A stretch of 63,044 nucleotides of DNA, the filler included, from Folioceros fuciformis (lineage: Eukaryota), in NCBI GenBank assembly GCA_049999805.1. It is 11 parts of 11 records of this genome, joined end to end, with 100 filler letters (N's around TTAATTAATTAA, not from the genome) between each part and the next. Parts side by side here need not be neighbours in the genome. Positions count along the whole stretch, not along the records: positions 6,945 to 22,898 come from JBNGIO010001710.1; 10 more parts are not named here. One strand, given 5' to 3'. Each line of letters opens with the position of its first letter. The stretch's first letter is position 1. The position numbers were made by a program, and so were the translations under genes. The notes below the pieces were generated by a model, which was not told the origin of the DNA, did not search any database, and saw nothing but the letters and a program-made list of their open reading frames with translations. This document shows, in pieces, positions 6,845 through 55,574 of the stretch.

Positions 6845-6944
6845 NNNNNNNNNNNNNNNNNNNNNNNNNNNNNNNNNNNNNNNNNNNNTTAATTAATTAA
6901 NNNNNNNNNNNNNNNNNNNNNNNNNNNNNNNNNNNNNNNNNNNN
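6845..6944. other. Artificial contig linker (44N-TTAATTAATTAA-44N); identical copies at 22899, 25438, 33813, 39942, 44993, 47268, 49409, 52092 and 55135
   Basis: Ten identical 100-nt blocks; the core places stop codons in all six frames. Confidence 0.98.
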
Positions 6945-6990
6945 CCAGGCTGCGGTCAAGAAGGGGCTCATTTGGGGGCTGCGGGGCTGG

Positions 6991-9900
6991 ATGGCTGGCC
7001 AGCGCCTTGAGGCGCAGGGCGGGGGTTCCGGGGGCGGAGAGGAAATAGTGGAGGTGGATGTTGCGGAAGAACGGGGTCTGGAGGTGCGGGTTGCGCGGGA
7101 CGTGATTGAAGAATCGGTTCCTGCCAGGCACGAGGAGGGAGAAAAGATGGACGTCCGGGACTGCAATTCTTGTCACAGCGGGCAGGGGGACGCCATCGTC
7201 GTGGCTTCAGATTATTGTGGCGCCGACCAGGCAGTGGAGGTGGACGCGAGCGCCTTCGATTTTTGTAGCGGCGGGAAGGAGGAGCTTGGAGCGGACCAGT
7301 CGGCCGAGGTCTACGAGCAAGAGCGTGTTCCCGGAGCGATGGAACTGGACTCCACGGAGGAGGAGGAGGAGGAGGAGCTGGCTAGGACAGAGGTTGACGA
7401 AGCCAGCTCCCGCGAATTTTGTTCGAGTGGGAAGGAGCCGTATTTGGAAGAGGACAATGAGGTTGAGGTCGACGAGTTCAGCTCTGAACAACAGTTTTGT
7501 GACATCGGGCTGGAGGAAGATCCGTTAGAAGACCAGGATGAGGCCGAGTTGGACGTGGGAGAGGAAGCGGATATGAACCATGGCCAAGAGGCGGCCGGTT
7601 TTGTACCTTGTCAGGCTGGAGCTCTCTCGGAACAGGTGCGTGTAGTGGAACTGGCCGTGACTGAAATTGACGAGGCCACCGATCGGACATTTCTTCACGG
7701 CGGCGATCTGTTACAAGACGTGATGACGCAAGAAATTGACGACGCCACCGATCCTGCTTTTTCTCACGGCGTAGCTCTCCTACAAGAGTTGGAAGTGGAG
7801 GGGCAGGCGAAGACGGAAGAAATTGTCGAGGCGACCGATCGTGTAATTTGCGACGGGGGAGGTCTCTCGCAAGAGGAGAAAGTGCAGGACTTGGCAACGC
7901 CAGGAACTATCGAAGCCGCCCGTGCTGATTTACGTCTTTCTCGAGAGGAGCGGCAGCTGGGAGCGCAGCCTGAAGAGGCGAAAGGGGAAGCGACACAGGA
8001 ATTTGAAACAACAGAGATTGACGATGCTAGCGCTCCTCAATTTTGTCTTAGCGGGGAAGGGGTCTCTCTGGGAGATGATCCAGAACCAGAAGGGGTGGAG
8101 GTGGCGGAAGTCGATGTAGGGGAAACGGCGAGAGCAGAGGTTGATGATGAGGCGACCGTTGCTGATGTTTGCCTTGGCCAAGACGACGGGGCTATGCGAG
8201 AGCAGCCAGAGGGCGTAGAGATGGATGTTGTGGAAGGACTGGCTAGCACAGAAGTTGACGTAGTCAGGCTGGAGGACCCGTTGCCGAAAGAGCGCGATGG
8301 AACCTCGGTGCTACCGTGCCGCCAGGATCTGGACAGCGGAGAGCGAGACGCAGGCCATCCAGGGAGCGGAGTGTCAATGGAATTTCGAGCAGAAAGGGAA
8401 TCAGGAGACAATGCAGGGCAGGCTGCGGAAGTCGAGCGACCTCCAGGCTTAGAGCACGTGGGCGATACATTTTCGGCGAGGGAGCTTGAAACTGGCAGGG
8501 ACCCTTTATCGGGGGATTCCCAGGTTCCAGTAGCTGAAGTCCCAGGACGGGAGCATGAGCAAGAGTCAAGCACTAACACGGTGGTTGAGAATGAGGATAA
8601 CTGTACAGATACGGACGAGCTTGCTGAGAAGCCTGAGGAGACGGTTCGGAGAACTTGGGAACCGGACCAACAAGTGCACAACGTCCTGCACGAGCACCAG
8701 GAAAGTTTTTCAGCCACAGGAGACGCAGCAGTCACAGAGGGAAATGAAGAGGAGACATTTACTCCTCCAGAATCTGAAACTGTGTCCATTCCTCTACACT
8801 GGCACCCGAAGCCTTGCCTTCATATTTCTGGTCTCGGAGGATCTGTAGCTCAAGAGGTACGAGCACGCTGACATCTGAAACTATTCGTTTTCAGAAGCAT
8901 TGTGCCCCTTTCCTCCAGCACCTCTCTCTAACTACACAGACATGCCAAGAGAGACTTTGTTCTGAATGTTTGGAAGGAAATGCTTGGTCTGTTGTTTGCT
9001 TTCGTGATTGATTTGAGGTTGCATTGTCAAATCAAGTTCTCTCCAACTTTCATCTACGCGCTTGCGCCTTTGTGAACTATTGCTGAGGAGGGTTGAACTG
9101 AAACGAGGGCATGTGTTATGTGTCACAACAAACAATCTGACCGAGTGATGTTTTGGGCTAAGAAATCGGAGACGCGGGATGATTTCTTGATTCCCATTTT
9201 CTGTCAACGGTGTCATCTCTGCCTTAAAACCATCGGTCCTTCTGTTTTCAGGTGACATCCTCTAAGTTGGCATGTTGGTCCTAAGCAGAACCGGTTGTTT
9301 TATAGTATCAGGATTTTGTGGATGGATAAACATGATGTGTATGGTAGAAGATGTATCACGACTTTGTGGATGGATAAACAAGAGGTCGAATGGTAGAAGA
9401 TGAACAAAGAGCAGATCTTGTGGAGTTGAAGGGCCTGACTGGTGGGATGGGAGGGAAAGGAAAGGAAAGGTAGAGAGAGAACTTCGTGCATCAGGGCAAA
9501 GCTCTGAGACCCCGTTTTGTAGTTGATGGTCTTCGAGCAAGGTTGTGACTTGTGGGGATTCTTATTTTTATGTATGTGGTGAGTTAAGATAAGGAAGACC
9601 AGATGTGTGAAGAGGGAAGGCCAAATTATATCTAATAAAATAGGTAGCATCAGGTTGAATGTAACCAAACAGATCAAGGGTCACAGGGGTGTCATGAAGC
9701 CCTGATTCCGCCGTGCTATTCTGTTTCCACAACAGACTGGAAACCAAGACTGGATGTCTAATGTGATGGTTTTGTGTCTTCCTGCCTGATCCTTGTGAAA
9801 CAGCACCAGATCTCATTGTTTTGAGAAGCATAATTTAAAGTTGCTCCAACATGCAGGAGCTGCTTCCATTCATCAATCAATATGTACCACTTGCTAGCAT

Positions 9901-12900
9901 GGTGTTTGAAAACGAGAAGAGAGATGCTGTTATTGTCCGTTGTGAGATTGCTCCTGAGGAGGCAGATGAGGCAGTCGCAACTCTTCGGGAGGCCTTTAAC
10001 AACACTCGATTTAAAGAAAAGACACTCGTGGTGGAAGCATTCCGTCCTGATTCTCTCTTGTTCATTGGGAACTTGACACCGGAGATAGACGACGAATCTC
10101 TACGCAAAATGTTTGAACCACATGGAAAGATTGAACGAGCTTTTGTGAGTTTAAGTAGTGTGGTTTCTTACTTTTGAGCCCTTTGTTCTTTGCTTTGTGG
10201 AACCCTTAGTTCTGATGCTGCCAAGAGCAGCTAGCTTACGACTCAGGTCTTTGTAGGTTCTGCGAAATCAGGAGGGGAGAAGTAAGGGATATGGCTTCGT
10301 GGAGTACAGCCTAAAATCACAGGTGAGGTCATTGTATCTTGATTAGTTGCCAGTCTGTAGATAATACGAGCCCTTCCATTTTAAGAGTAGCTGACAATGC
10401 AATAGAGCTTACAGGCAACTACAGCGAAGCTAGTAATGGGGAACATCGACATGGATGGCCGAGTTCTTCGTGTGGAATGGTCAGACTGTAGGAAAGTTGC
10501 CGACATGTTTTCAACTGTTTTGTTTGTGGATCGAATCGCAAAGGAGTGCCCGAATGTAAGTACGTGTTTTCTCGACTACTTGCAAGGGTCAAGGAAGGAA
10601 ATAAAGAAAGTTGAAACATTGTTGGCACAGCAAACTTAAGTCTAGAATGGTAACATCAGACTCCTGTCGCGTGCAGATTGAGGACATCCTGAGAACTCTG
10701 TTCGGGGAGTTTGGAAGGGTGCGCGATTGCCATCTGGCAATTGGTATGAGTCAACAGTTCCGTGGCTTTGCATTTATTGACTTCAATCATTCTACTTATG
10801 CTGATAAAGGTGTAATATCCCGTCTTATCATGTCACATCAAGTTATATTGCTGTCAGTCAGGTTCACAGACGAGGGAATGAGCTTGTTGAGGTAACATGT
10901 AGACTTAACAGTGAGATGCATTGGTCTTTCTCTTTGATGTGATAACTAGCTCATGAAGCTTTAGATGGCAAAGAAGTGGAGGGCTCCAATGTACGAGTCA
11001 GCTTTGCAAATCCGTCCAAGTCAGCTCAGGTATGATAAAGGATGTCGCTTCCCATTATTTTTCCTGAATTCAGGTTGCGTGCTTTCCGCATCATTTATTT
11101 GGTGTGGTTTATTGTGCTTCAGTCATACAAATCACGCTTTGGCAATCAAGGTCTCACTTCTGGAGTTTCTGGCAGGGGCTTCCCTGGTAGGTCCAAAGGT
11201 CTTCTCTGGTTGGAATATCATGATGCTTTTCTTGATTTTTGGTGGTCTCTGTCTTCGTGTTCTGTTGTCACTGAGTAGTTGAACCGGCACTGCTTTGGGA
11301 ATCTGATGGTTTTAACTCTCAATTCTTTCCCTTTACCAGTTGTGCCTGCAATGATGGGTGCTGCTATTCGAGGGCATATGGCAATGCCACTCCTGGCTCC
11401 TCGTTTTCTTGGTGCACGACCATGCATGCTTGGGATGGGATTAGGCATGGTAATGCCTACTGCGATGAGTTTTCTGTGCTATGTGTTACTGGTTTGCATT
11501 TTTTGGCTTGTAAGAGAACTAGCATTGTCACTCATGAGAAGTGTCGCTAACCTTTTTTGCTGCCTCTTGCTTCCAGCAATTTGGAGGCGGGGCACCGGTT
11601 GGACCAGGTATGATTGGCCGTGGTCTCGTTAGTCCATTGTTGAGTGGAGGAGCGGGCATGCTGGGACCAGGGTCGATTGCTGGAATGATGGGGCGTGGTC
11701 CGGGGCTTCTGCTGGGTGAGTGAATGCATGAGGTTTTCGTTCGTTATGGCTAGCTCAAAAGATGTCAACTGACCTCAACATCTCTCTTTCAGGACCGGTA
11801 CCCATTCCATCTGCAGCGATAGCCCAGGTTAGTATTAATCGCTCCTGGGTGATTCATATCAACTGCAGCACATCCTTCCAGTGCTGATTCTTCGTGTCTT
11901 TCAAGCAGGTGGCCACTGCTCAAGCAAAGGCTCGTGAGGAAGAAGCCAAGGCAAGGGCAGAGGTCTGTGTAATTGCAAGCAATGGCACTCATTGATATTA
12001 TAATATGTTTTTTTTGACAATTCTCTCACAGTTGATGGTGGACTTCTTAAACAGTTTAGGAGGTTGCAGGAGGTTGCACAACATTCCCAGATAGCACCAG
12101 TAAACATTGTATGCTGGAATGTCAATGTAGTTGAACATAGTCTCGTTCAGCTTTCTGTAAGGACAGGCAGAGAACACAGCTGCCTGAGCGTAATTTGAGA
12201 GCTTGATCTATGATGTGGTTGGCAGCAGTCAGGGCAAAACTATTATCAAGATGTGCAGTATCCTTATCAACAGGCTTACCAGCAAACTGGACAGCAATCC
12301 TCGATACCAGTCCCGCAGCAGGTACCCTTGTTGTAGTCCCAATGCATGTGCATTAGAAAAGCTTGAGAGCAATCCTTTATTCTACCTCTTCCATTCATTT
12401 AGCTTATTTGCCTGTGAGGCCTTGTTATCTAGGGGGACAGTACTTGGTTTCATTTCCATGGTCTGGTGCTTGGAAAGAGATCCAACTATTTCGATGACTG
12501 TTTGTGAATATAGCAGCCGCAGCCGCAGCACCACAATGGGCAACAGGGGCACCAGACATATGCAGCTACATACTTTTCTCAGACTGGCCAGCAGCATCAT
12601 ATACAGCAGCAGCAGCCACTGCCGCCTCTTCCGCAACCGCAGCACCACCAGGTAACTTGTGTCCAGGGGTCCTCTCCTTGACGTTCTCCTCCCATTAGTT
12701 TCATCACGTTGTTACCTGACATTCTCTTGCTTCTGAAACAGACAGCCTATTATCATCAGCAGACACAACCGAGTCCGCAGGTTCGTCACTCTAATTATTA
12801 TCTTACTAGGGTAACCTCGGCAAGTTAAGGAATTGTTTTGGCAGTGCTAGAGTTTGTCTCATGTAACCCGTTGTACCCAAATCCCGTCGGACCCTCAATG

Positions 12901-14467
12901 TAACGTTGGGCTGCAGCAAAATGGACTGGAAAGCGACTTGATTTGACCATTGATATTCTTCTTGGTCACTGCAGACATCAAATAGTGTACAGCAGCAGCA
13001 GTACAACCAGTATGCTCAGCAATACAGTCAACAATACGGCCAGCAGCCTTATGGTAATCAGATGACAGCGCAGCAATATGGTCAGCAGCAACAGCAGAAT
13101 ACAAGCTCACAAGTGACACAGCGCCCCCAACAGGAGTATGCAGAGCTTTATGCTCAGCAGTTGCAATTGCATCAGCAGCAAGAGCAACAGCAGCTGCAAC
13201 TGCAGCAGCAGCAACAACTGCAGCAGCAGCAACAACAGCAGCAGCAGCAACAACTGCAGCATCAGCAACAACAGCAGCAAAAGCAAAAGCAGCAACAACA
13301 CCACCACAATCAGCAGCGACAATATCAACAACGACATCAACCCCAACATCATCAAGAGGCTGCTGTCGCTGCGTCCACCAGCAACATGTCTGCTTATGCT
13401 CCAGACATAGCTCAGCCACTCACTTATGCTCCCTATTATCAGCATCGGGTACGTTCTTGTAAATTCTTTCCTTCTCTCCCTTTTAGATCTATAACATCAG
13501 CCTAAATAAAGCCTGGGAGGCTCGTGTTTGTTGTAGGCTACAGCCATTCCTGGTACACAGACTCCAACTTCATCTCCGGTGGCTCAACAGCAGCAGTCAT
13601 TGGAAGCACAGTGGGCAGCATACTACGCAGCACAACAAGCTGCTCATCAGGTTTAATATATTTCTGGCTTTACTTCCAGTGTAAGAAAACTGTCCTGAAT
13701 GGGTTTGTCTTGACAAGTGGACTGGTGTCCTAACAGACTGAGGGTGTCAATAATGCTTATAATGAGCAGGGGAGTGTTAGCCAACAACCACACCAGAATA
13801 GCGCAGTCACTTTGACATCTGGCTACTATCAGGTCATTTCCTAGCTGTGATAAAACCCTATTTTAAGACCAGTAAGATTGCTTTGAGGCCTACTGGGCAT
13901 GTGGAACTACTTAACTAAATTGCTGACGGAACGTGCAGCAATCCTCTGGGTCAGATGTGGGGCAGAAGCGATCAGCCGATCAGATGGAGTATGGATCTCA
14001 AACTATGGTAATGAGTTGGTCAAGCTCTTTTTGTTTGGCCAGTGGCAAACTTGTTTCACTCAGTTGCTCATTTCAAGCACGCTTTCCAATGCCAGCAAGG
14101 TGCATACGCCTACAATCAGCAAGGCGGTTCGAACGCAGCAGCTTATCAGCACCATGCAGCTACATCTGACACCGTATATCAAAATCAAAATGCTAGCACG
14201 GGTAGCAGCTTTCAACAAGCTGCATTACCAGCATTATATCAGCATCAGACCCTGTCAGCGGGCTACCAGCAAACTGCAGATGCTGTTGTCTACCAGCAAC
14301 CTGCAGATGCTGTTATATACCAGCAACCGGCGGATGCTGGTGTCTACCAGCAGCAGCCTTCTTCCAGTTATCACCACCAACAATCCGCAGGGACATACCA
14401 CCAACCACATCAGGGAGCGACTGTATCAGCAGCAGTCTACGAATACAGCAAAAGGCCTCGATATTAA
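6991..14467 (+). CDS. Multi-exon RNA-binding protein: acidic N-terminus, three tandem RRMs (RAVER-like), Gly/Pro/Met-rich linker, Gln/Tyr-rich C-terminus
   Basis: GT-AG exons 6991-8856, 9857-10144, 10257-10322, 10415-10555, 10677-10809, 10950-11029 splice in frame. They give LHISGL (RRM1), LFIGNL/KGYGFVEY (RRM2) and LFVDRI/RGFAFIDF (RRM3). Further small exons lead through polyQ (about 13165-13300) to YSKRPRY-stop at 14467. The start may lie upstream, in the gap. Confidence 0.85.
9305..9402. repeat. Intronic 48-bp tandem duplication
   Basis: GTATCA..TTTGTGGATGGATAAACA..ATGGTAGAAGATG at 9305 and 9353. Confidence 0.7.
13165..13300 (+). repeat. Coding CAG/CAA polyglutamine tract
   Basis: Mixed CAG/CAA run encoding QQQ...QLQ...QKQKQQQHHH. 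Confidence 0.9.
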
Positions 14468-17423
14468 ATGGGAGAGAATGGTGCATGTTGCAAGTGAAGA
14501 GACAGGGGCGGGCTGGCCAGATATGGTTGTAGAGGGCGGAACTGGCACGCAGGCTAACTCAGCCAAAGGTTTGGAGCTACTAGCTGGTACGAGGAGGCTT
14601 TCCAAAATCTTACAGGACATTGGGTCTGAAAGAGAGTTAGGAGGGAGGGGTTGGGATAATGGGAGCATAGTAATGGTCTTGAACAAGCCATTGTGAGATG
14701 GTGTTGAGTTGTGTTGCTAGGTTTCTTGAGTGCAGATGAGGATGCTGACTAAATTTTCTGATGGTGTGCGAATCTTTCCAGTGTGGCTGGGGTGTGGTAT
14801 CTGGGGGCCATTGTGATCTTAGCAGGTGTAGGGAATCGTTGGAATCCTCTTATGTTAAAATGGGCTCATCTAAAGAGATGCATGTACTCATTGCAGAAGC
14901 ACAGTGAGCATTAGTTTTCGTAAAGGCTACTTGCAAAAAGAGTGTTTAGAGCTTAGGGGTACTGGAAATTCTGTGTTGGGAAATGGATAATGTTTGTTTT
15001 GTGTGGACTGTTATATCTTCTTAATGCAACAATCCACTCTGCCATGTATGCATGAAGCTGTGCAGTCATCAACAGCAAAGAAGGGTGCATATGGAGTGAC
15101 GTTGTGGCATCACCTTTTGGAGCAAGACCTCCACTGACCCTTGGCGCTTCTGTTCTGCTTCTGCCATCCATCATCTGCTTCATGTGGGTTCCCAGCTGAG
15201 GCTGAATTACACAGTTGAGGGATCCATGGGGATATTGCCCAAGTTTGAGCAATTTATATGTGGTAGCGATGAACGACTGTGCATACCTCTGACAAGGGTG
15301 AATGAAAGTGGTGTTGGCTTGGTGGCTTTCCTGTGTTATTGAGAATTCTGGCTATTGCAAACTGTATTGTTCCAGATTGCATTCAATTTTGATATGGTGA
15401 TGTGACCACCAAGTCATCATCATCGGATGAAGTAGAGCAGCGGTATTTTAATTTTGAAGTGACGGGATAATTGGAAGGAATGCATTTCATGTAATGGCAT
15501 CACCTGGATCGTGGAGAGGCTTTGATGATTGCTGTATAACTTCCATCCCATCTGGGTTCCGTTGTGAGCAGCTTGTCCGCAGTTTTCAGTGAAGGTCTCA
15601 TCCTCTTCGTTTTGGTGAAGAGGAGTGAAAACATTCTTCTCTGATCAGCTGTCAAGTTCTTCTACTGAGGTAATGCAAAAATCCCTGTCCTGTGGGTAAT
15701 TACGCATAATCCAGTTTTAGCTCAACACTTGGCTTCAATTTGCACACCTGCCAAATGTGAAATCCAACGGGTTCTGCCTCCCTGGTGTAGAGGTGGCCTC
15801 TTCCTGAATCCAGAGGCAGCTAGGGCTCTGGAGCTTTCATTCTTCGGGAGGACATGTGTCCATTCATCATCAAGGGCCCATACCTGGTGGACAGCGGAAC
15901 GTAGTGTAAAGGAGAGGGTCCTTACAGCCAATCAAGGCCCCCTTTAACATCCTCAGCGGGTAGCCGGTAGCCGGGAGAGCAGAAAGCTGGAAAAGAGCTC
16001 CTAGCAAGTAAGAGTCCTGTCCTTTTGACAACGTACAACATGTTATTATTTAAGTATTATTATCGTTATGGTTATCATGTTTCGCTCATGCGCCATCACC
16101 AAAAGGAAAGGCTGCAACTGCTAGATACATACCGGACAGCGTAAAACTGGAAAATGACATGCAACGGGACGGAACGATAAAGTACAAGAATCTTTACTAG
16201 AATTTAAAAGGTTTGAAGCGGGGAAACGTGATTTACAGGGAATGGCCATTGTATGTAAACGGTAGGAGGCTATTAGGAGGCTGAGGAAGGTTCGCCCTGG
16301 AGAGCCTGGACAGCAGTTGGTGGCAGAACGGGCAATATTGTCCTACATAAACAAGGCACACAGGGGACAGATAGGCTGGCATTGGAATCTGGCCATAGGG
16401 CACAGAGAGGACGCAAGTCAACAGTCCTGTCACCTTGCCCGACCCTCGCTCTCTCTCTCTCGCGATTCACAATTCGCCGTCCCGATTCCCGATTCTCGAT
16501 TCGCCGATTTGCTCATTGCTTGCTCACCATGTCCTGCTCTGAGCTCCTACCAGCTGTGGGCTCGTGTACAGTTTCCCAAGCATGTGCTAGTTATTACCAA
16601 CCCCAGCTTCCGGACTCTGCCTGGAACCGAGCTGGAGCTGAAGCCGGATCCGGATCCAGAACTTGGCTGGGCCCTCTCTAAACCTTGCTCCCGCCCCCCT
16701 CACTAATCTGTCTTTTGTTCCGGGAACAGGTCACGAGTCTCTGCTACCGTGGCGTGTTCATTTGCTCGCATCCCCCTGATCCAAAATTTCATCCGTCACC
16801 CACGGTCCTGCGATCTGCGGAATTTGCATGCGCTGTAGCTCGGCTTCTTTGCGCGCGTTATCGATCTTCTGGCCGTGGAGCGTGCAAGCACACGCTGGGC
16901 TGCTGGAATGGCTTTTGTTTCCTCGTCGACGCTGAATTTCAGCTGGATTGTTCATGGAAGCTGACCGAGGTCCTGTATCGGAGACCTGGAAGGTGTCTCA
17001 TCATGCTTGTTGCCGGGACCGGGAGCAAGGGTAGCTGTGGTCTGTGCTCTGCTGCTACTGCTGCTGTGTGGAAAGCAGAGCCGGTGCAGCAGAGCAGGGG
17101 CCCGGGACCCCAGATCCAGCGCACCCAAGACTGGTTGAGGCTGAGGGTGCGGATGACAAGATTTGGGATTTTCTCCTCCTGCTCCAAGTATGAGCATCGC
17201 TGGGGGGCTGGCCAAGTCTAGGGGGCTCCTGCGCTTCCAGGCCCGCAGTTCCGAGAGCCCGGAACGGGCTCGCTTGGCCGGGGTCAAGGAGGCTTCGAAC
17301 AGTGCGGAATTGTTTGGACGCACCGGTGCGCATGCGGATGCTTTGCTTTCGTGCCCATGTTAGGCAGAGTGAGTTCAGGACCTTCGTATGCCGTGAATCT
17401 AATGAAGTGTCGGCTTTGCAGAT

Positions 17424-20400
17424 GTGCAGGCTCAACCCTCACTTGATGAAGGAGTCTCAGGGGAAGGAATGATCTTTCAGCTGGATGATGCCCGTGCTCT
17501 CAGTGACGTTCACTCTCAAGGACTGCGGGCCTTGTCGTGCCCCATGGAGATACTCGTTGATGGCAGTGGCCAACCAGGAGTGGATGGTGTTCATGGGAGC
17601 CATGGGGTCCCGGGTAAAGACGGTGCAGATGGCGCTCCTGGAAAGGTGAGTGAACGTTACTCGTGTAGCCCAGCGTGCCTGTCATTCAGTGTTGCCATCT
17701 GACTTGTCTCCTCCGATCAGCCTGGGTATGGACCGTCAAGGCCTGGTAAACCTGGCTGGGATGGCAAGGATGGTAAGCCTGGTATGGCAGGCAAGAAAGG
17801 GTTCAAGGGCGGAAATGGAACAAGTGGTGGACGGGGTGCGAATTTCCATGTCGAACTTTCCAGCTCTGACTCATATTCCGTGCAAGTCGCTGGATTTATG
17901 GAGTTGCCGGCAACTCCTGTTCTCCAGACACTGGACCCTGATCAACCTCAAAATACTGAGACCATGAGCACACCTGGTGGATTTTTGAGGCATTCCTTGC
18001 AGTTGCAGCGTCCTTCTTCTGGAGATTCCCGAGTGAATGGGTGAGCGTCGTTGCCTGCGTGGAATTCAAACTTGGGAATTCGCATTGCCTGATGCTAAAA
18101 GAACCCATTTTGTGATAAGCTGTTTCGTTTTTGATTGCGCAGGCCTGTCGAGGCTACGGAGGATAAGCCCGGACATGTATCTTTGGAGCCAGGGAGATGT
18201 ATTGTGATTCGAGCCAGCGGAGGACGGGGGGGTCGTGGTGGCAATGGTGGAAATGGTGGCAATGGTGGCAGGGGTGGCTCTGGTGGGTCAGGAGGCCAGG
18301 GAGGTGATGGAAAGAAAGGGCTGAAGCCTGGAATGAATGGTGAAAATGGAGGGGATGGTGGTGCTGGTGGCAATGGAGTGCCAGGTGGAGCTGGTGGTGA
18401 CGGTGGTCCTGCAGGCAAGGGAGGGAATGCAGGAGCAGGAGGTCGCGTTGTGGTCCAAACCACAGATCCTACTTTGCTCATGCTTGTAGAGGTTGATGTA
18501 CGACCTGGGCTCCCTGGAGAAGCAGGAATACCTGGTATTGAATACAGGTTCACACTCTCTTTCCATCTGACAGCGTGGGGTGACCTGTTCAGTGTCCTTC
18601 ATTGTACTTAGTTTTGGTATGTACTGTGATTAGGCTTTCTGGGGCCCTGGTCTTTTTGATTTTTAAATGGAACCTGTAACACTCACGTATTCAAGATGCT
18701 AAGTCCGTGTCTTCTTCTCTGTTTTCGAGTAGCATGTGCTACTTGTCACGTGAACTGAGTATGCGTGCCTGTTTCGTCAGGAATAGGTGGCACAGGAGGT
18801 GAGTCTGGAAAGGCAGGTGCTCCTGGCCCTCCAGGTAAAGGCGGGCCAGGTTGGGACAAGCTCTATTTGAAAAAATCACGAAAGACAAAGCATTTTACGT
18901 GCCATAGTGGCACCCATGGAAGGCCGGGGAAAATGGGTGCAGCAGGTTCTCCTCCAGCTCTCATGGGGTCCCCTGGCCTGCCTGCAGACGCCGGCAAGGA
19001 AGCACGGCCTGGGCAGGTGAGGCTTCGGGTGCCAGAGATGGTTCTACCCTGGTGGCGTGCGGTCTTGTCCATCGGCTACTTATTAGCTCTGCTTGGGGTC
19101 CTGTGTAAGGGCGAGAATTACATTTGGCTGGTGGGAATACAGGTTACTTGGATTGTCAAGTCTCATGATGGGGAAGTGCTGGAGAGAGGAAAGGATCGTT
19201 ACAACTGCGTGGTGACACATTTTCGGGTCCAGTCATCTTTCAAAGATGGCGTGATACGACCTGGTGGGGAGGTGCTAATTGACCAGGTTTGTGTCCTCAC
19301 GATCATCGTTGCTGCAGCTGCCCCGCTGGATGGGCACCGAACTTGATGGTCTTGCATGCTTCAAAGGTTCTGACATAGCGTCCTACCCCTTCAGGTGGAG
19401 GTCTGTAACAGTGGTGGAATTACTCTTCCTGGAGGCACTCGTCTCTTCTTTCAGGAGACGGCAGTGCTCTTTTCTGTCGATAAGAATTCCATCGAAACGC
19501 TCCCTGCTATACGGCCTCATAAAACTCACAAAATCAAAAGGGTATTTCGCATGCGGGTTATCGAACTGGCTTCCCCTGTTGGAGGGTCATGTTTCAACGC
19601 CACCACGGCAGTAGTCCCATGTGTTGACCTGCTGGGGCGGCCATTCCGGTCTTCAGATAAACTGCTTGAGGCAAGTGGGCGTATGCAAATTCATTCACGC
19701 TATTTGGGGCTTTGTATTTTGCATTCCGGCAATTGTGAATCGTGGTAGCCCGTCGGATACTGGACGTTCTCATCAAAATTTATTCAACTGAAGGGTGAAG
19801 TGTCTGGTCGCATGCAGATACCGTTGCGATATCCAGTGCAGATCGTTGGAGATGCCGAGTTTCCACACACTGTAAGAAAAGGAGACGTGGTGGTCGCTAA
19901 AGTCAGATTGCGGAACATCTCGACAGGAGTCTACGGGAGCAGCAGTAACATGTCTCTAACTCGTCCTCCGTACATATTTCATTCTCATTTACCCGCAGTG
20001 TATTGTATTTTGACGCACAGTGTACCTATCAGGTCGCTGGGCCCTGTCAAGGTTATGGTTTTGATGTTTGTTGAACTGGAAGATGGTCGGAGAGTGGAGT
20101 GCTCTTGGACGAAAGATGCGGAGTATATTGCTCCAAGTGAAGACTGTATCTTGGGAATATCTTGTCGCATCAACAATGACACTCTTGCCTATTCTTTGAC
20201 AAGTATCCAAGTTCATCTGCTGCTAGGAGGCCAGAGTGTAGAATATCGGTGAGACTCGTGTGCTACTTTAGCTGTGCGGTTCCCAATTGGCTACTTCTGC
20301 TTCCAGTTGTTGATTTGCTGCTCAACTTGCAGGCATCTAGAGTCACGTGTGGTTCCTGTATATGAGAAGGCCAAGGAGGCAGTTTTCATAACAGACTCTC

Positions 20401-21846
20401 AGCTGAAGCCCAAGGAGTATGTCGCTTGGAAATACGTGTTGGCCATATTAGGATTGGAACACGTATGCTGGGATGTTACATGGCATTGTACATTTGCTCC
20501 ATCAGAGGTCGCGTGGCTAGGAGGTCATAACTTAGTAATATTGCCTCATGTTCCCCAAGACCATGGCCTCTTACATTGGATAAGAATGGTCTTACCGTGG
20601 CATGTTCATACACTAAGTGGTCCAGCTTCAGCAGAGAATGCCGGAGGTGAGCTGTGCCGATTGGGGCAGTTTGAAAGTTTGCAGTTGTGATGACATTTCT
20701 TTGTCTGAGTGTCGCTAAATTCAGGAAGGTCGTTTGTTGACGTGAGCAGCTGTTGTAATGGGTCCATACCCGAAGGATGTCAGTCGGCACATGATAAACT
20801 GGGAAAGCTTGGCAACAACCAAGGTTGTTAAGACATCGAGATTCAGAGTCTCCTGCTTCGGAGACACAGAAGACAGGGCCGCCAGAAGAGCTGCCACTCA
20901 AGCTCTCCACTTCCAGGATCAACTGAATGCGCTGAATCAAAATCAATACAATTTTGTGGTCTCCCCTTCCATGAAGCGTGGGAGTGCCCTTGTGAAGCTC
21001 CGAGCATACAGAGAAATACTGCCAGCTATGTTTCGGTTAAGAGCAGCTCCCATTGAAGCTGTAGCTATTCCATCAGGGTTCTTCCCTGAATCGTCTACGG
21101 AAGTCAAGGAGGAGGTCTCAGAGGATGTGTTCGGTTTTGAGAGATGGTCTCCGGAACTGGGCAGGAGCAAAACGGAGCGACCAGCGACTCAACATCTTTG
21201 GTCTCCCATTCCCCTGTGGTCACCATTTGGTTTTGCAATCTCTGCAATGCTTGTGTATTTGCCAATCAAGTTCAAGTTACGGGTCTTGGCTCATTTTCAC
21301 TCCCACCCTCCTGGGCAGCTACCACTATATTTCACATCTAACGTCTCGTTCATCCAGGTAAGCCTTTGAGACCCCAACTCCTCTGTTTAATCGGGAGGAA
21401 TCGCCTTCTTTTGTGGAATCTAAATATTCTTTCTCACTCTGTAGGTCATTGGGCTCGGCTTGTACTATGATGTCAAGATGGACTGGTATAGTAGGAGGGA
21501 CTCTCTCCCTCATGGGGAATTACTGGTCGCCGAAATCGAAAGATTGGTGAGCAGTGGGCAGTGGTCTGGGTGGTCTCTGACCCAGGACTACGTTTACGCG
21601 CTCACCGGAGGTCTCATCCATTTTCGATCAGAGTTGAGCTCCAGACTTCTTTCAGGTCGGTCATCCAAAGCTAAAACCACAGTCAATGCTTTGATCGAGA
21701 GGGTTCAGGCGGCCATATGTAGAGGGGAGATGAAATTTCCTACAGAGAAACAGATCAAGCAGGTGTATGATGGCCTTACGGTCCTTCCACCCTGGCTCTT
21801 CGTGGATGCGACGGAAAAGCCGCCGATCCAGATAGTTTATGAATGA
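17424..21846 (+). CDS. Multi-exon protein of unknown function with Gly-X-Y (collagen-like) and GGX repeats followed by globular domains
   Basis: Coding blocks flanked by GT-AG sites (e.g. donor 17646, exons about 17721-18041, 18144-18533, 18781-19016, last exon 21445-21846). Repeats include GQPGVDGVHGSHGVPGKDGADGAPG and GGRGGRGGNGGNGGNGG. Start codon uncertain (first in-frame ATG at 17469). Confidence 0.75.
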
Positions 21847-23883
21847 TACGGTTTTCCCGGAGTGGTAGTAGCGGGTCTTCCAGGAAGTGCCTGTGATTTG
21901 TATTTTATCCGAGATTCTTTCAATACCATGTCCGTAGATGTGAGCAAACAGCTGGACAAGCATTCTTTTTGAGATGATAATAACATGGAGGGTTCGATAG
22001 GCAGATAACTGTACTCGTTCTTAGAGTTGAGGAGACTCCTCCGTCATATTCAGGAGTGACCTGATGAATTCAAACCTCCCTCAACTCCATCGAAATGGGG
22101 CTGCACAGGATGCGACTGTGAAGACTCAACCAGTTTGAGCGAAGTCGTGCCGTCCACTAACTACACGGTATGCCCAATTCTATCCGACTTGCCTCATTGC
22201 AGTGAACTGTGGGTCTTCGGACGGAAGAGTACCATCACGATAACCTGCTGGAAGTGCTTGCTGAAAGTGGCCGATCCGAGAGGCATTCCCCGAACACAAT
22301 AATAACTGGCCAACAAATGTAACACGTGCTGTTCCCGGGGCGGAAATGCCTAGCATAGCTGACAGCATAGCATGAAACGTTCAGTGCCTTGCCAGTAACA
22401 GCGAAGCTGTGTCCCAGGTGGATGGAGGAGGTTTCCTTTGACACGGATTAGTGGATTACGCTTCCACCGTAATAAGACGGCAGTAGTGATAGTCGGATTG
22501 CAGCCCTCGCTGAGGCCGCCAGCAGGCCTTGCTGTGGCCGTCATCTCATACCGATTCCGCCTCCGCTTGTGCGCCATGAAGCTAATGACAACGGGAGGGA
22601 AGGATATGCTAGAAAGCAGCGCGATAACCTTCCCCAGACAATACTAATCCGACAATCCTGTGACTGCTCTCACAATCTGTGAGTGAGCCTCTATCGCTCT
22701 AAAAAATGTTTTGGTCAAATGTGGCCGCCCTTTTCTTCGATGGCCTCGCCATGTCTCGACACACGCGGCACGACCTGCATCGCGTTTCCCCGAGACCTCC
22801 CAGGGCTCGGCCTGCCTGTCTCGCATGCCTTCCCTTCCACTGTCCCCCGTTTTAAACCCCCACCGATCTGAACCTGCCACAAGCTTCTGCTTCTATTTNN
22901 NNNNNNNNNNNNNNNNNNNNNNNNNNNNNNNNNNNNNNNNNNTTAATTAATTAANNNNNNNNNNNNNNNNNNNNNNNNNNNNNNNNNNNNNNNNNNNNAC
23001 TCCAAGTAGAGCAGCACTCAATAGTGAGGAATCAGTCCAAAACCCAACCAACATTGAACACCCAAAAGCTACTCCTATTCAAAACCCTTGGCTTTTTGTA
23101 TGCTCTTCCAGAGGCTGGGAGGCACCTTTCCCAATGCAATCTCTTCTTTGCAGACATGCAATTTCACCTCAAGTTCTGTATCTATCTATAGTGAATTCTT
23201 CTTCTCCATTGTTGTTTTTAAAGCCAGTTGATCTCCATGCATAACTCACAAATTCACTTCCACTGATTTGGCTTGTGGAACAATTTTTAATTTCACCTAG
23301 TTATTTTATGAAGCCCGTAATTTTATTTTCATTCTCTAGTAAAAAAAAGGTCATCCTTTACCCTTTATTGAGCAATCCTAAAAATCATGGAACAAAATTA
23401 TATGATTAAAAATACATTATATTATATATTTAAATATATATTAGAAACTTATTTGTAAGAATGAGATTTTCTATTATTGATAAAATCATCCTTATAGTCA
23501 TTCGCTATTACTACGCAACCACCATGATAACACCTCTTTGCAGAAAGGTTAAGCACATCTTTCTTTTGTATACAAATTTTGGTTAACTTCTCAAAGAACA
23601 ATGTAAAGAGAAGTATAAAGATGAAAGAAAAACCCTCCAAAAAAAAGCACTCCATTAAATTCACAAAGATTTGATAAACTCAAGACATGAGAATGTTTTT
23701 AAAATGTTTTAATGTTTAGAAGTACTTAAAGGCTCCCTCTCGTGACCTGCAATTCTTCTAAGAATATTACCAATATACTTGAATTCATATACAAATCTAT
23801 AATTTTATTTTAAATCTAATACACATACCTATATTTTGTGCAATGTAGAATGGTGGGCAAATAATTAAGAATCTGATTTTTTA

Positions 23884-55134: not shown

Positions 55135-55574
55135 NNNNNNNNNNNNNNNNNNNNNNNNNNNNNNNNNNNNNNNNNNNNTTAATTAATTAANNNNNNNNNN
55201 NNNNNNNNNNNNNNNNNNNNNNNNNNNNNNNNNNGTGTACGTGTATCCCTTCACCACTCCCTTGGGTGATTTTGGGACTCAGCAGAAGAGACTGAAAGTT
55301 CTGGAAGAGGAGCTTGGTTGGAGTTTACCTAGCTACGAGAATTCTCTACAAGATGTTTGAACTACAACAGCGTAGGCTGCGTTTTATTCCTTCTCCATAA
55401 CAGATTCATTGTACTACGCGACTGAGGAGCATCCCATTCCGTGGATAAATGCCTTTGTGTACAAGTTTGGAGATTTCAACTCTGCAGACTACTCCTACTT
55501 CTACGAAATTCCAAAGAGAGACAAAACTGATCTGAGCGTTGCCCAAATTCGGGAAAATGGATGAGAACCTAGCA

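Follow-up and report, generated by a model that had tools for sequence, protein, structure and literature searches.

A probable plant member of the RAVER family of three-RRM proteins in Folioceros fuciformis

We analysed 63,044 nucleotides of DNA from Folioceros fuciformis (assembly GCA_049999805.1), a stretch referred to below as the window, in which 11 parts of 11 records are joined end to end and positions 6,945 to 22,898 come from JBNGIO010001710.1. An expressed, multi-exon gene on the + strand of the window, spanning at least 7043-14467, is probably a plant member of an ancient, eukaryote-wide family of nuclear, hnRNP-type proteins whose animal members are RAVER1 and RAVER2. The segment 8812-11029 is confirmed as a real spliced plant gene for a protein with three RNA recognition motifs (RRMs). 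RAVER1 and RAVER2 have been studied as animal PTB co-repressors, and a preliminary description of this DNA, made from its sequence alone, had proposed a RAVER-like protein at 8812-11029.

Kinship with RAVER1 and RAVER2

In the database searches, annotated orthologues stood in for the spliced protein of the window. The exon 2 peptide recovered 13 longer plant proteins among 168 candidates (53-62% identity, E from 7e-30 to 3e-21); they come from liverworts, a lycophyte and a conifer, and include Marchantia polymorpha Mp7g14020, proteins of Calypogeia fissa and two Riccia species, two Diphasiastrum genes and a Cryptomeria japonica protein. Precomputed Pfam assignments place RRM_1 (PF00076) on all 13 (with PF10419 in addition on P0006 and PF16842 on P0012), and the 13 keep the whole plan through a C-terminal YDYSKRPR[FY]. 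The annotated Mp7g14020 (P0002) ends in ...FPRETKS, unrelated to this family C-terminus, which suggests that the last exon of the Marchantia gene model was mis-called.

The three-RRM cores of six plant members were aligned (alignment A1, 264 profile positions), and the resulting profile was compared with all sequences in the PDB. Human RAVER1 aligned through RRM1-3 in one stretch (profile positions 7-254 to RAVER1 20-262, 110.2 bits), as it did with the single Marchantia core (12-260 to 24-267, 95.9 bits), while the next non-PABP family in the PDB reached 66 bits with the profile. The plant RRM2-RRM3 linker aligns to LYVHWTD... of RAVER1, and the human RAVER1 strings given in the preliminary description are all present in the RAVER1 chain of the PDB alignment. 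An AlphaFold2 (AF2) model of the three-RRM core (pLDDT 79.3, pTM 0.70) gave the same best match. With Foldseek, RAVER1 chains took ranks 1-4 (E from 2.0e-20 to 4.9e-18, TM 0.59-0.62, 255-266 columns), followed at rank 5 by a match with E of 1.8e-12 and TM of 0.28; with VIA-align they took ranks 1-3 (Z of 17.9, 17.4 and 16.5 over 252-254 residues), and the next match had a Z of 14.5 over 91 residues. By profile, Foldseek and VIA-align alike, human RAVER1 is the sole solved structure that aligns over all three RRMs; the plant core consists of three consecutive RRMs collinear with RRM1-3 of RAVER1.

Domain by domain, the likeness is uneven. Profile-profile comparison (hhalign) of plant with animal RAVER domains scored 190.7 for RRM2 against RRM2 and 180.3 for RRM3 against RRM3, and all off-diagonal and PABP pairs scored 101 or less; plant RRM2 and RRM3 are nearer to RRM2 and RRM3 of RAVER than to other RRMs. 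With RAVER1 and RAVER2 (structures 3H2U, 3SMZ and 3VF0) the plant proteins share three contiguous N-terminal RRMs of equal lengths and spacing, specific similarity in RRM2, in the W-[ST]-D...VDR[LI] linker and in RRM3, a predicted three-domain fold for which RAVER is the best match, and a place in the same tree clade. They differ in that identity over the RRMs is only about 25%, RRM1 is not specifically similar, a long acidic stretch of at least 600 residues precedes the RRMs in the window's gene, the strict PRI motif is lacking, and the tail of the plant gene is much longer and richer in Gln. The similarity, which had been proposed to run past RNP1 and RNP2 into linkers and atypical positions, is RAVER-specific in RRM2, the linker and RRM3 but not in RRM1.

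The family across eukaryotes

An exhaustive search of 1.84 billion representative sequences with the plant profile returned 21,830 matches at E≤0.001, 66 of them at E≤1e-30; the relatives named here come from the best 150 of the 21,830. Single-stretch matches over nearly the full profile were found in Psilotum (498 bits), the angiosperm Tasmannia (397), Acytostelium (207), Pterosperma (190), Chlorokybus (186), Synstelium (179), Diphylleia (158) and Spirodela (117; a divergent protein of 342 residues), and Guillardia has a partial member. A Nematostella protein scored 135 bits against the plant profile and itself aligned with RAVER1 in the PDB in one stretch (167 bits, E of 5e-48); a reverse search starting from it found the plant member of Tasmannia at E of 1.7e-28. 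Against a second profile (alignment A2, four sequences: two cnidarian and two relatives), a fish 'ribonucleoprotein PTB-binding 2' scored 200 bits, the plant members P0003 and P0016 scored 168 bits with 38-40% identity, and PABPs reached at most 161 bits with 25-30% identity. Both cnidarian-based searches scored word-sharing candidates only. When 285 sequences were searched with the plant profile (hmmsearch), RAVER-like animal proteins had best single domains of 89-134 bits, and generic multi-RRM proteins stayed at or below 76 bits per domain.

Two high scorers against A2 were set aside. A sponge protein (P0179, 254 bits) has about ten RRMs, none of which exceeds 32 bits in its generic match to the plant profile, and a Capsaspora 'PABP' (P0036, 184 bits) matches in four separate generic stretches; neither was counted in the family. 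The nearest animal members are the cnidarian RAVER-like proteins of Nematostella (P0169), Pocillopora (P0173) and Actinia (P0175), with 119-135 bits to the plant profile and 38-40% identity with plant members. Their C-termini (YYDSNKRLRY, YEANKRPRF) and a GQKRAAE motif resemble the plant ones, whereas their RRM1 is divergent (the profile alignment begins at position 64) and their tails, on otherwise uncharacterised proteins, are Pro-rich rather than Gly/Met-rich. Automatic names are misleading here: P0169 is called 'bromodomain-containing protein 4 isoform X2' and P0175 'glutenin, high molecular weight subunit DX5-like'. A RAVER-like protein of the sturgeon Acipenser sinensis (P0033, flagged UNVERIFIED_CONTAM) repeats its RRM1-RRM2 block verbatim and has no PRI motifs; its model is probably mis-assembled or mis-predicted.

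For phylogenetic placement, a careful maximum likelihood (ML) tree was built from RRM2, the linker and RRM3 (62 rows, 177 columns). A branch of length 0.63 with 100/100 support separates 30 family rows (11 plant, 5 amoebozoan/CRuMs/unknown and 14 labelled as animal RAVER-like) from 32 generic multi-RRM rows, among which are PABPs, nucleolins, MRD1 and an hnRNP Q-like protein. Placement with PABP or an hnRNP Q-like protein had been named beforehand as the outcome that would speak against a RAVER identity, and the plant family lies across this branch from both, together with RAVER2 and the cnidarian RAVER-like proteins. The plant rows fall on one side of a split supported at 81/85, as do 13 of the 14 'animal' rows at 97/85; the 14 include fish RAVER2, the sturgeon relative and Guillardia P0065, the last of which fell outside the animal group. 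The window's gene is sister to Marchantia (98/90), and a quick tree agrees.

The region beyond the RRMs also carries family features. A basic C-terminus of the form [S/N]K[R/K][P/L]R[Y/F] occurs in 8 of 13 plant, 3 of 5 amoebozoan/CRuMs/unknown and 6 of 16 animal proteins, and in none of 32 outgroup proteins. For W..YY the corresponding counts are 10/13, 1/5, 2/16 and 0/32, and for GQKR-type motifs 7/13, 2/5, 4/16 and 1/32. Missing tail motifs are weak evidence, because several rows are truncated gene models. All three are present in the window's gene (WAAYY, GQKRSAD and the terminal SKRPRY), and fish RAVER2 has the counterparts WNQYYY, GQKREY and the terminal KKKRI (YFKKKRI); basic C-termini of animals include the coral YYDSNKRLRY and the Actinia YEANKRPRF. 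The plant protein has a tail of RAVER2 type, rich in Gln and Tyr, in which W..YY and GQKR precede a basic C-terminus.

Several results weigh against membership in the RAVER family, among them those on RRM1. In a phmmer search of the PDB with Marchantia RRM1, RAVER1 was absent from the 10 matches at E≤10, and the best match was hnRNP L (E of 0.019); by hhalign the plant RRM1 profile scored 54.0 against animal RAVER RRM1 and 54.5 and 50.9 against PABP RRMs. Position and length are all that RRM1 has in common with RAVER. Because RRM1 scores no better than PABP RRMs, what ties the plant proteins to RAVER is RRM2, the linker and RRM3 together with the tail. The yeast PABP exceeds RAVER1 in whole-sequence score both with the Marchantia core (109.5 vs 95.9 bits) and with the profile (126.9 vs 110.2 bits), exon 2 alone matches NONO (33.7 bits) better than RAVER1 (25.8 bits) in the PDB, and a protein-atlas look-up of the Marchantia RRM core returned generic RRM clusters alone, all below 0.9. 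The domain arrangement of the AF2 model is not independent evidence, because AF2 was trained on the PDB, RAVER1 included. Many family rows are metagenome or Logan proteins; the outgroups of the tree were taken from the top matches to the plant and cnidarian profiles, a set without DBHS proteins (NONO/SFPQ) and hnRNP M, and vertebrate RAVER1 was compared through the PDB alone, outside the tree. Finally, the strict PRI motif, [S/G][I/L]LGxxP, occurs neither in the three forward frames of 6946-14700 nor in the spliced part, and a scan of the 13 plant homologues found a single occurrence, in Diphasiastrum P0012, at a site that is not conserved.

The RRM1 result, the higher summed PABP scores and the generic atlas clusters would be expected of a generic multi-RRM protein, whose likeness to RAVER was due to canonical RRM residues and a collinearity arisen by chance, not to specific common ancestry. 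We consider this very unlikely. The total of 126.9 for yeast PABP is the sum of three separate domain matches (49.5 + 55.7 + 36.5), not one collinear stretch, whereas the alignment with RAVER1 is a single stretch running through the linkers; the RRM2-RRM2 and RRM3-RRM3 scores are nearly double those of any off-diagonal pair; a 100/100 branch sets the family apart in the tree; bridging sequences come from dictyostelids, Diphylleia and cnidarians; and tail motifs are held in common that the 32 outgroups hardly contain (0, 1 and 0 occurrences).

Descent from another named RRM family (FCA, hnRNP Q/R-LIF2, PABP or DBHS) is less probable still, to the point that we give it almost no weight. FCA, likewise a nuclear protein of plants in which RRMs are combined with a Gln-rich tail, comes to mind since the Cryptomeria orthologue (P0008) is automatically named 'flowering time control protein FCA isoform X2', a name that, like 'bromodomain' and 'glutenin' above, is probably due to the Gln-rich tail. 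FCA, though, combines a WW domain with two RRMs, whereas the plant family has three RRMs, and PF00076 is the only assignment on the Cryptomeria protein. DBHS proteins (NONO, SFPQ, PSPC1) carry a NOPS domain and a coiled coil behind only two RRMs. NONO, through its RRM1, does top the PDB list for exon 2, but with the profile DBHS proteins rank after RAVER1, PABP and Pub1, and NONO covers positions 83-163 only, at 65.6 bits against 110.2 for RAVER1. PABP has four RRMs and a C-terminal PABC domain. The precomputed Pfam assignments of the 13 plant proteins give RRM_1 without WW, NOPS or the PABP C-terminal domain (PF00658), and PABPs and the hnRNP Q-like protein lie beyond the 100/100 branch. Membership in the RAVER family is the reading that we retain.

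Gene structure and splicing

Read from the sequence, the + strand at 8812-11029 yields six coding pieces in frame with GT..AG borders, as the preliminary description had it. We compared contigs from four public runs with window positions 7000-14700; the run type, RNA, is a guess of the tool, and none of the runs listed is on record as RNA. All six exon junctions proposed beforehand are joined at GT..AG in these contigs. Intron 8857-9856 (1,000 bases, GT..AG), which had been predicted to split RRM1, is skipped by contigs of three of the four runs, giving the joint 8856/9857. Further GT..AG joints were present in contigs of all four runs (10144/10257 and 10809/10950) or of three (10555/10677 and 11029/11123), and ten more lie downstream of 11029/11123, reaching 14007/14096, with 14 joints in addition to these. 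A contig of 2,978 bases from run X1 has zero differences from the window, and the other three runs are coded as different organisms, with contigs that diverge from the window at many places. Because the contigs skip a chain of GT..AG introns, spliced transcripts are the best explanation.

When annotated homologues (Marchantia P0002, P0003 and Cryptomeria P0008) were compared with the DNA by tblastn, the alignments of all three broke at identical exon borders, and all seven peptides quoted in the preliminary description are found in the spliced translation. Of the five RRM-exon pieces, Pfam RRM_1 matches three: exon 2 (30.2 bits, residues 68-95) and exon 5 (29.9 bits) above the curated cut-off, and exon 3 slightly under it (18.4 bits, cut-off 20.7). 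No Rfam family matched 6900-14700 at the gathering threshold. The whole gene exceeds the feature noted at the outset, running on the + strand from at least 7043 to 14467; its parts are given in Table 1.

Table 1. Parts of the probable RAVER-family gene in the window. Positions are those of the window; joints are written as the two bases brought together; HSPs, high-scoring segment pairs.
Feature	Positions	Strand	Evidence
Exon 1 (as covered): acidic N-terminal region; last 15 codons (8812-8856), first strand of RRM1	7043-8856	+	Open frame 6901-8871; unbroken run X1 contig; homologue HSPs end at 8856
Intron 1, splitting RRM1	8857-9856	+	Skipped by contigs in 3/4 runs
Exon 2: remainder of RRM1 (degenerate, without aromatic RNP residues), then junction and RNP2 end of RRM2	9857-10144	+	Translation, Pfam, homologues, joints
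Exon 3: RNP1 of RRM2 (KGYGFVEY)	10257-10322	+	Sequence, Pfam, tblastn, contigs
Exon 4: end of RRM2, RRM2-RRM3 linker (LRVEWSD...MFSTVLFVDRI), RNP2 of RRM3	10415-10555	+	Sequence, tblastn, contigs
Exon 5: middle of RRM3 with RNP1 (RGFAFIDF), ending in phase 1	10677-10809	+	Pfam (29.9 bits), joints
Exon 6: end of RRM3 (..NVRVSFANPSKSAQ)	10950-11029	+	Sequence, tblastn, contigs
Five short exons: conserved SYKSRFG stretch, Gly/Met/Arg-rich region, charged helix (ATAQAKAREEEAKARAE)	11123-11186, 11340-11449, 11577-11715, 11793-11827, 11909-11962	+	Joints, homologue HSPs, spliced translation
GMLGPGS, loosely PRI-like peptide outside the strict RAVER PRI consensus	11655-11675	+	Motif scan
Gln/Tyr-rich tail in several exons (joints 12780/12975, 13448/13537, 13650/13737, 13832/13939, 14007/14096)	12055-14467	+	Contigs, homologue HSPs
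CAG/CAA poly-Gln tract	13169-13300	+	Tail sequence
EAQWAAYYAAQ	within 13537-13650	+	Tail motif
VGQKRSADQM	within 13939-14004	+	Tail motif
C-terminus YEYSKRPRY, then stop codon	stop 14465-14467	+	Tail sequence

In the acidic region of exon 1, Glu makes up 17% of about 600 residues, and TE(I/V)D(E/D)A(S/T) recurs in about six copies; the copies, extended as TE(I/V)D(E/D)A(S/T)..F..G, are spaced over 7390-8100. The region before RRM1 is about 600 residues long in the window's gene and 70-270 in homologues, so that it looks like a lineage-specific expansion, and within the repeats a contig of run X2 differs from the window by many substitutions and in-frame indels. The true 5' end of the gene is hidden by the N blocks at 6845-6888 and 6901-6944, the foremost of ten pairs of 44-base N blocks (12 bases within a pair, up to 55191-55234) that the header of the stretch identifies as joining filler.

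Other repeats lie further along. Intron 1 contains a tandemly duplicated 48-base unit (9305-9402), and two low-depth contigs of run X1 fall inside this intron at 8951-9599 (depth 2.7-2.8, vs 19.1 in exons); these may come from a retained intron, unspliced precursor or DNA carry-over. In the tail, a 27-base unit repeated 3.3 times (14263-14352) encodes YQQPADAV repeats, and contigs seem to be cut at the poly-Gln repeat (13169-13300).

Proposed function, a possible PTB link and the reach of the family

Most likely the protein regulates pre-mRNA processing in the nucleus. RRM2 and RRM3 retain the canonical RNP1 and RNP2 residues and would bind single-stranded RNA, and RRM1, without aromatic RNP residues, may serve as a protein contact or scaffold by analogy with RRM1 of RAVER1, which has been crystallised in complex with the vinculin tail. 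The terminal KRPR would act as a classical nuclear-import signal (consensus K-[K/R]-x-[K/R]), and the Gly/Met/Arg-rich and Gln/Tyr-rich tails could provide multivalent, low-affinity contacts with other RNP proteins.

A link to PTB is a separate matter. The PRI consensus used above is that given in a 2013 potato study (PMC3663837), according to which phage display against potato StPTB6 picks a peptide containing GVLGPWP, the StPTB-binding consensus is [S/G][V/I][L/V]G, and a Raver-like protein was not found in plant databases. The scan recovered two strict PRI motifs in fish RAVER2, the positive control (0.02 expected), 115-255 residues past RRM3. The strict PTB-binding motif is missing from the window's gene and is not conserved in the plant family, so that action through PTB, as in RAVER1, would be conjecture, and the PTB-RAVER module that the preliminary description had envisaged in plants is hypothetical. 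Looser forms do occur. GMLGP[GA]S is found in 5 of the 13 plant homologues scanned; it lies about 90 residues past RRM3 in the window's gene as well as in Marchantia, Calypogeia, P0003 and Diphasiastrum P0014, with GMLGTGA in Cryptomeria; LLLGPVP arises across the 11715/11793 junction of the window's gene; and a relaxed PRI pattern matches 9 of 13 plant homologues, vs about 0.1 expected per shuffled protein. The relaxed pattern matched none of the 5 amoebozoan/CRuMs/unknown members, and the cnidarians have solely P-L-[LM]-G forms.

On these grounds the protein might be a working PTB co-regulator in which GMLGPGS or LLLGPVP docks on the helical face of RRM2 of a plant PTB, the PTB-RAVER pair then predating the split of plants and animals. 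The recurrent placement of GMLGP[GA]S past RRM3 in several land plants, the position of the PRI motifs of fish RAVER2, also past RRM3, and the peptide selected by StPTB6 speak for it; the lack of the strict motif speaks against it, as do the inheritance of the land-plant relaxed matches as copies rather than independent events, the lack of even the relaxed motif in the amoebozoan/CRuMs/unknown members, the restriction of cnidarians to P-L-[LM]-G forms, and a Gly/Met-rich composition that favours such strings by chance. We regard it as rather unlikely. The link is nevertheless worth testing, because a plant PTB is reported to select GVLGPWP-like peptides and no plant Raver-like protein was found there (PMC3663837). 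In a broader and more speculative form, which we hold to be doubtful, RAVER would be a single branch of an RNP protein present throughout eukaryotes, rather than an invention of animals, and its pairing with PTB would go back to the last common ancestor of plants and animals. The peptide that docks on PTB would have changed in plants to GMLGP[GA]S or LLLGPxP, and plant PTBs would have in this family the PRI-type ligand that the potato study sought in vain, overlooked since most model angiosperms seem to have lost it or let it diverge.

What we retain is membership in the RAVER family, whatever its dealings with PTB. The preliminary description knew of no described plant orthologue, and none appears in the literature searched, in keeping with the statement in PMC3663837. 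Neither a plant nor a protist RAVER was found described in that literature, nor anything on Marchantia Mp7g14020 or on raver2 in invertebrates, orthology databases being outside its scope. The family had also been proposed as an ancient module retained in seed-free plants, and here the view has to change: the conifer Cryptomeria, the angiosperm Tasmannia and, in divergent form, Spirodela have members, and in place of a relic shared by plants and animals, members are found across eukaryotes. Judged by sequence similarity, the family range is land plants, green algae, a cryptophyte, dictyostelids, Diphylleia and cnidarians.

These comparisons point to a RAVER family that reaches beyond animals into most eukaryotic supergroups, an extension of something known rather than a new kind of system. 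A RAVER-family gene would be present in liverworts, lycophytes, ferns, conifers and at least some angiosperms, as well as in green algae, a cryptophyte, dictyostelids and Diphylleia, which would move the origin of the family back to early eukaryotes and correct the automatic names FCA, bromodomain-containing protein 4 and glutenin. The Marchantia orthologue, a single annotated gene, would offer a tractable model for the ancestral job of RAVER, whether PTB-dependent or not, and for the partners of plant PTBs.

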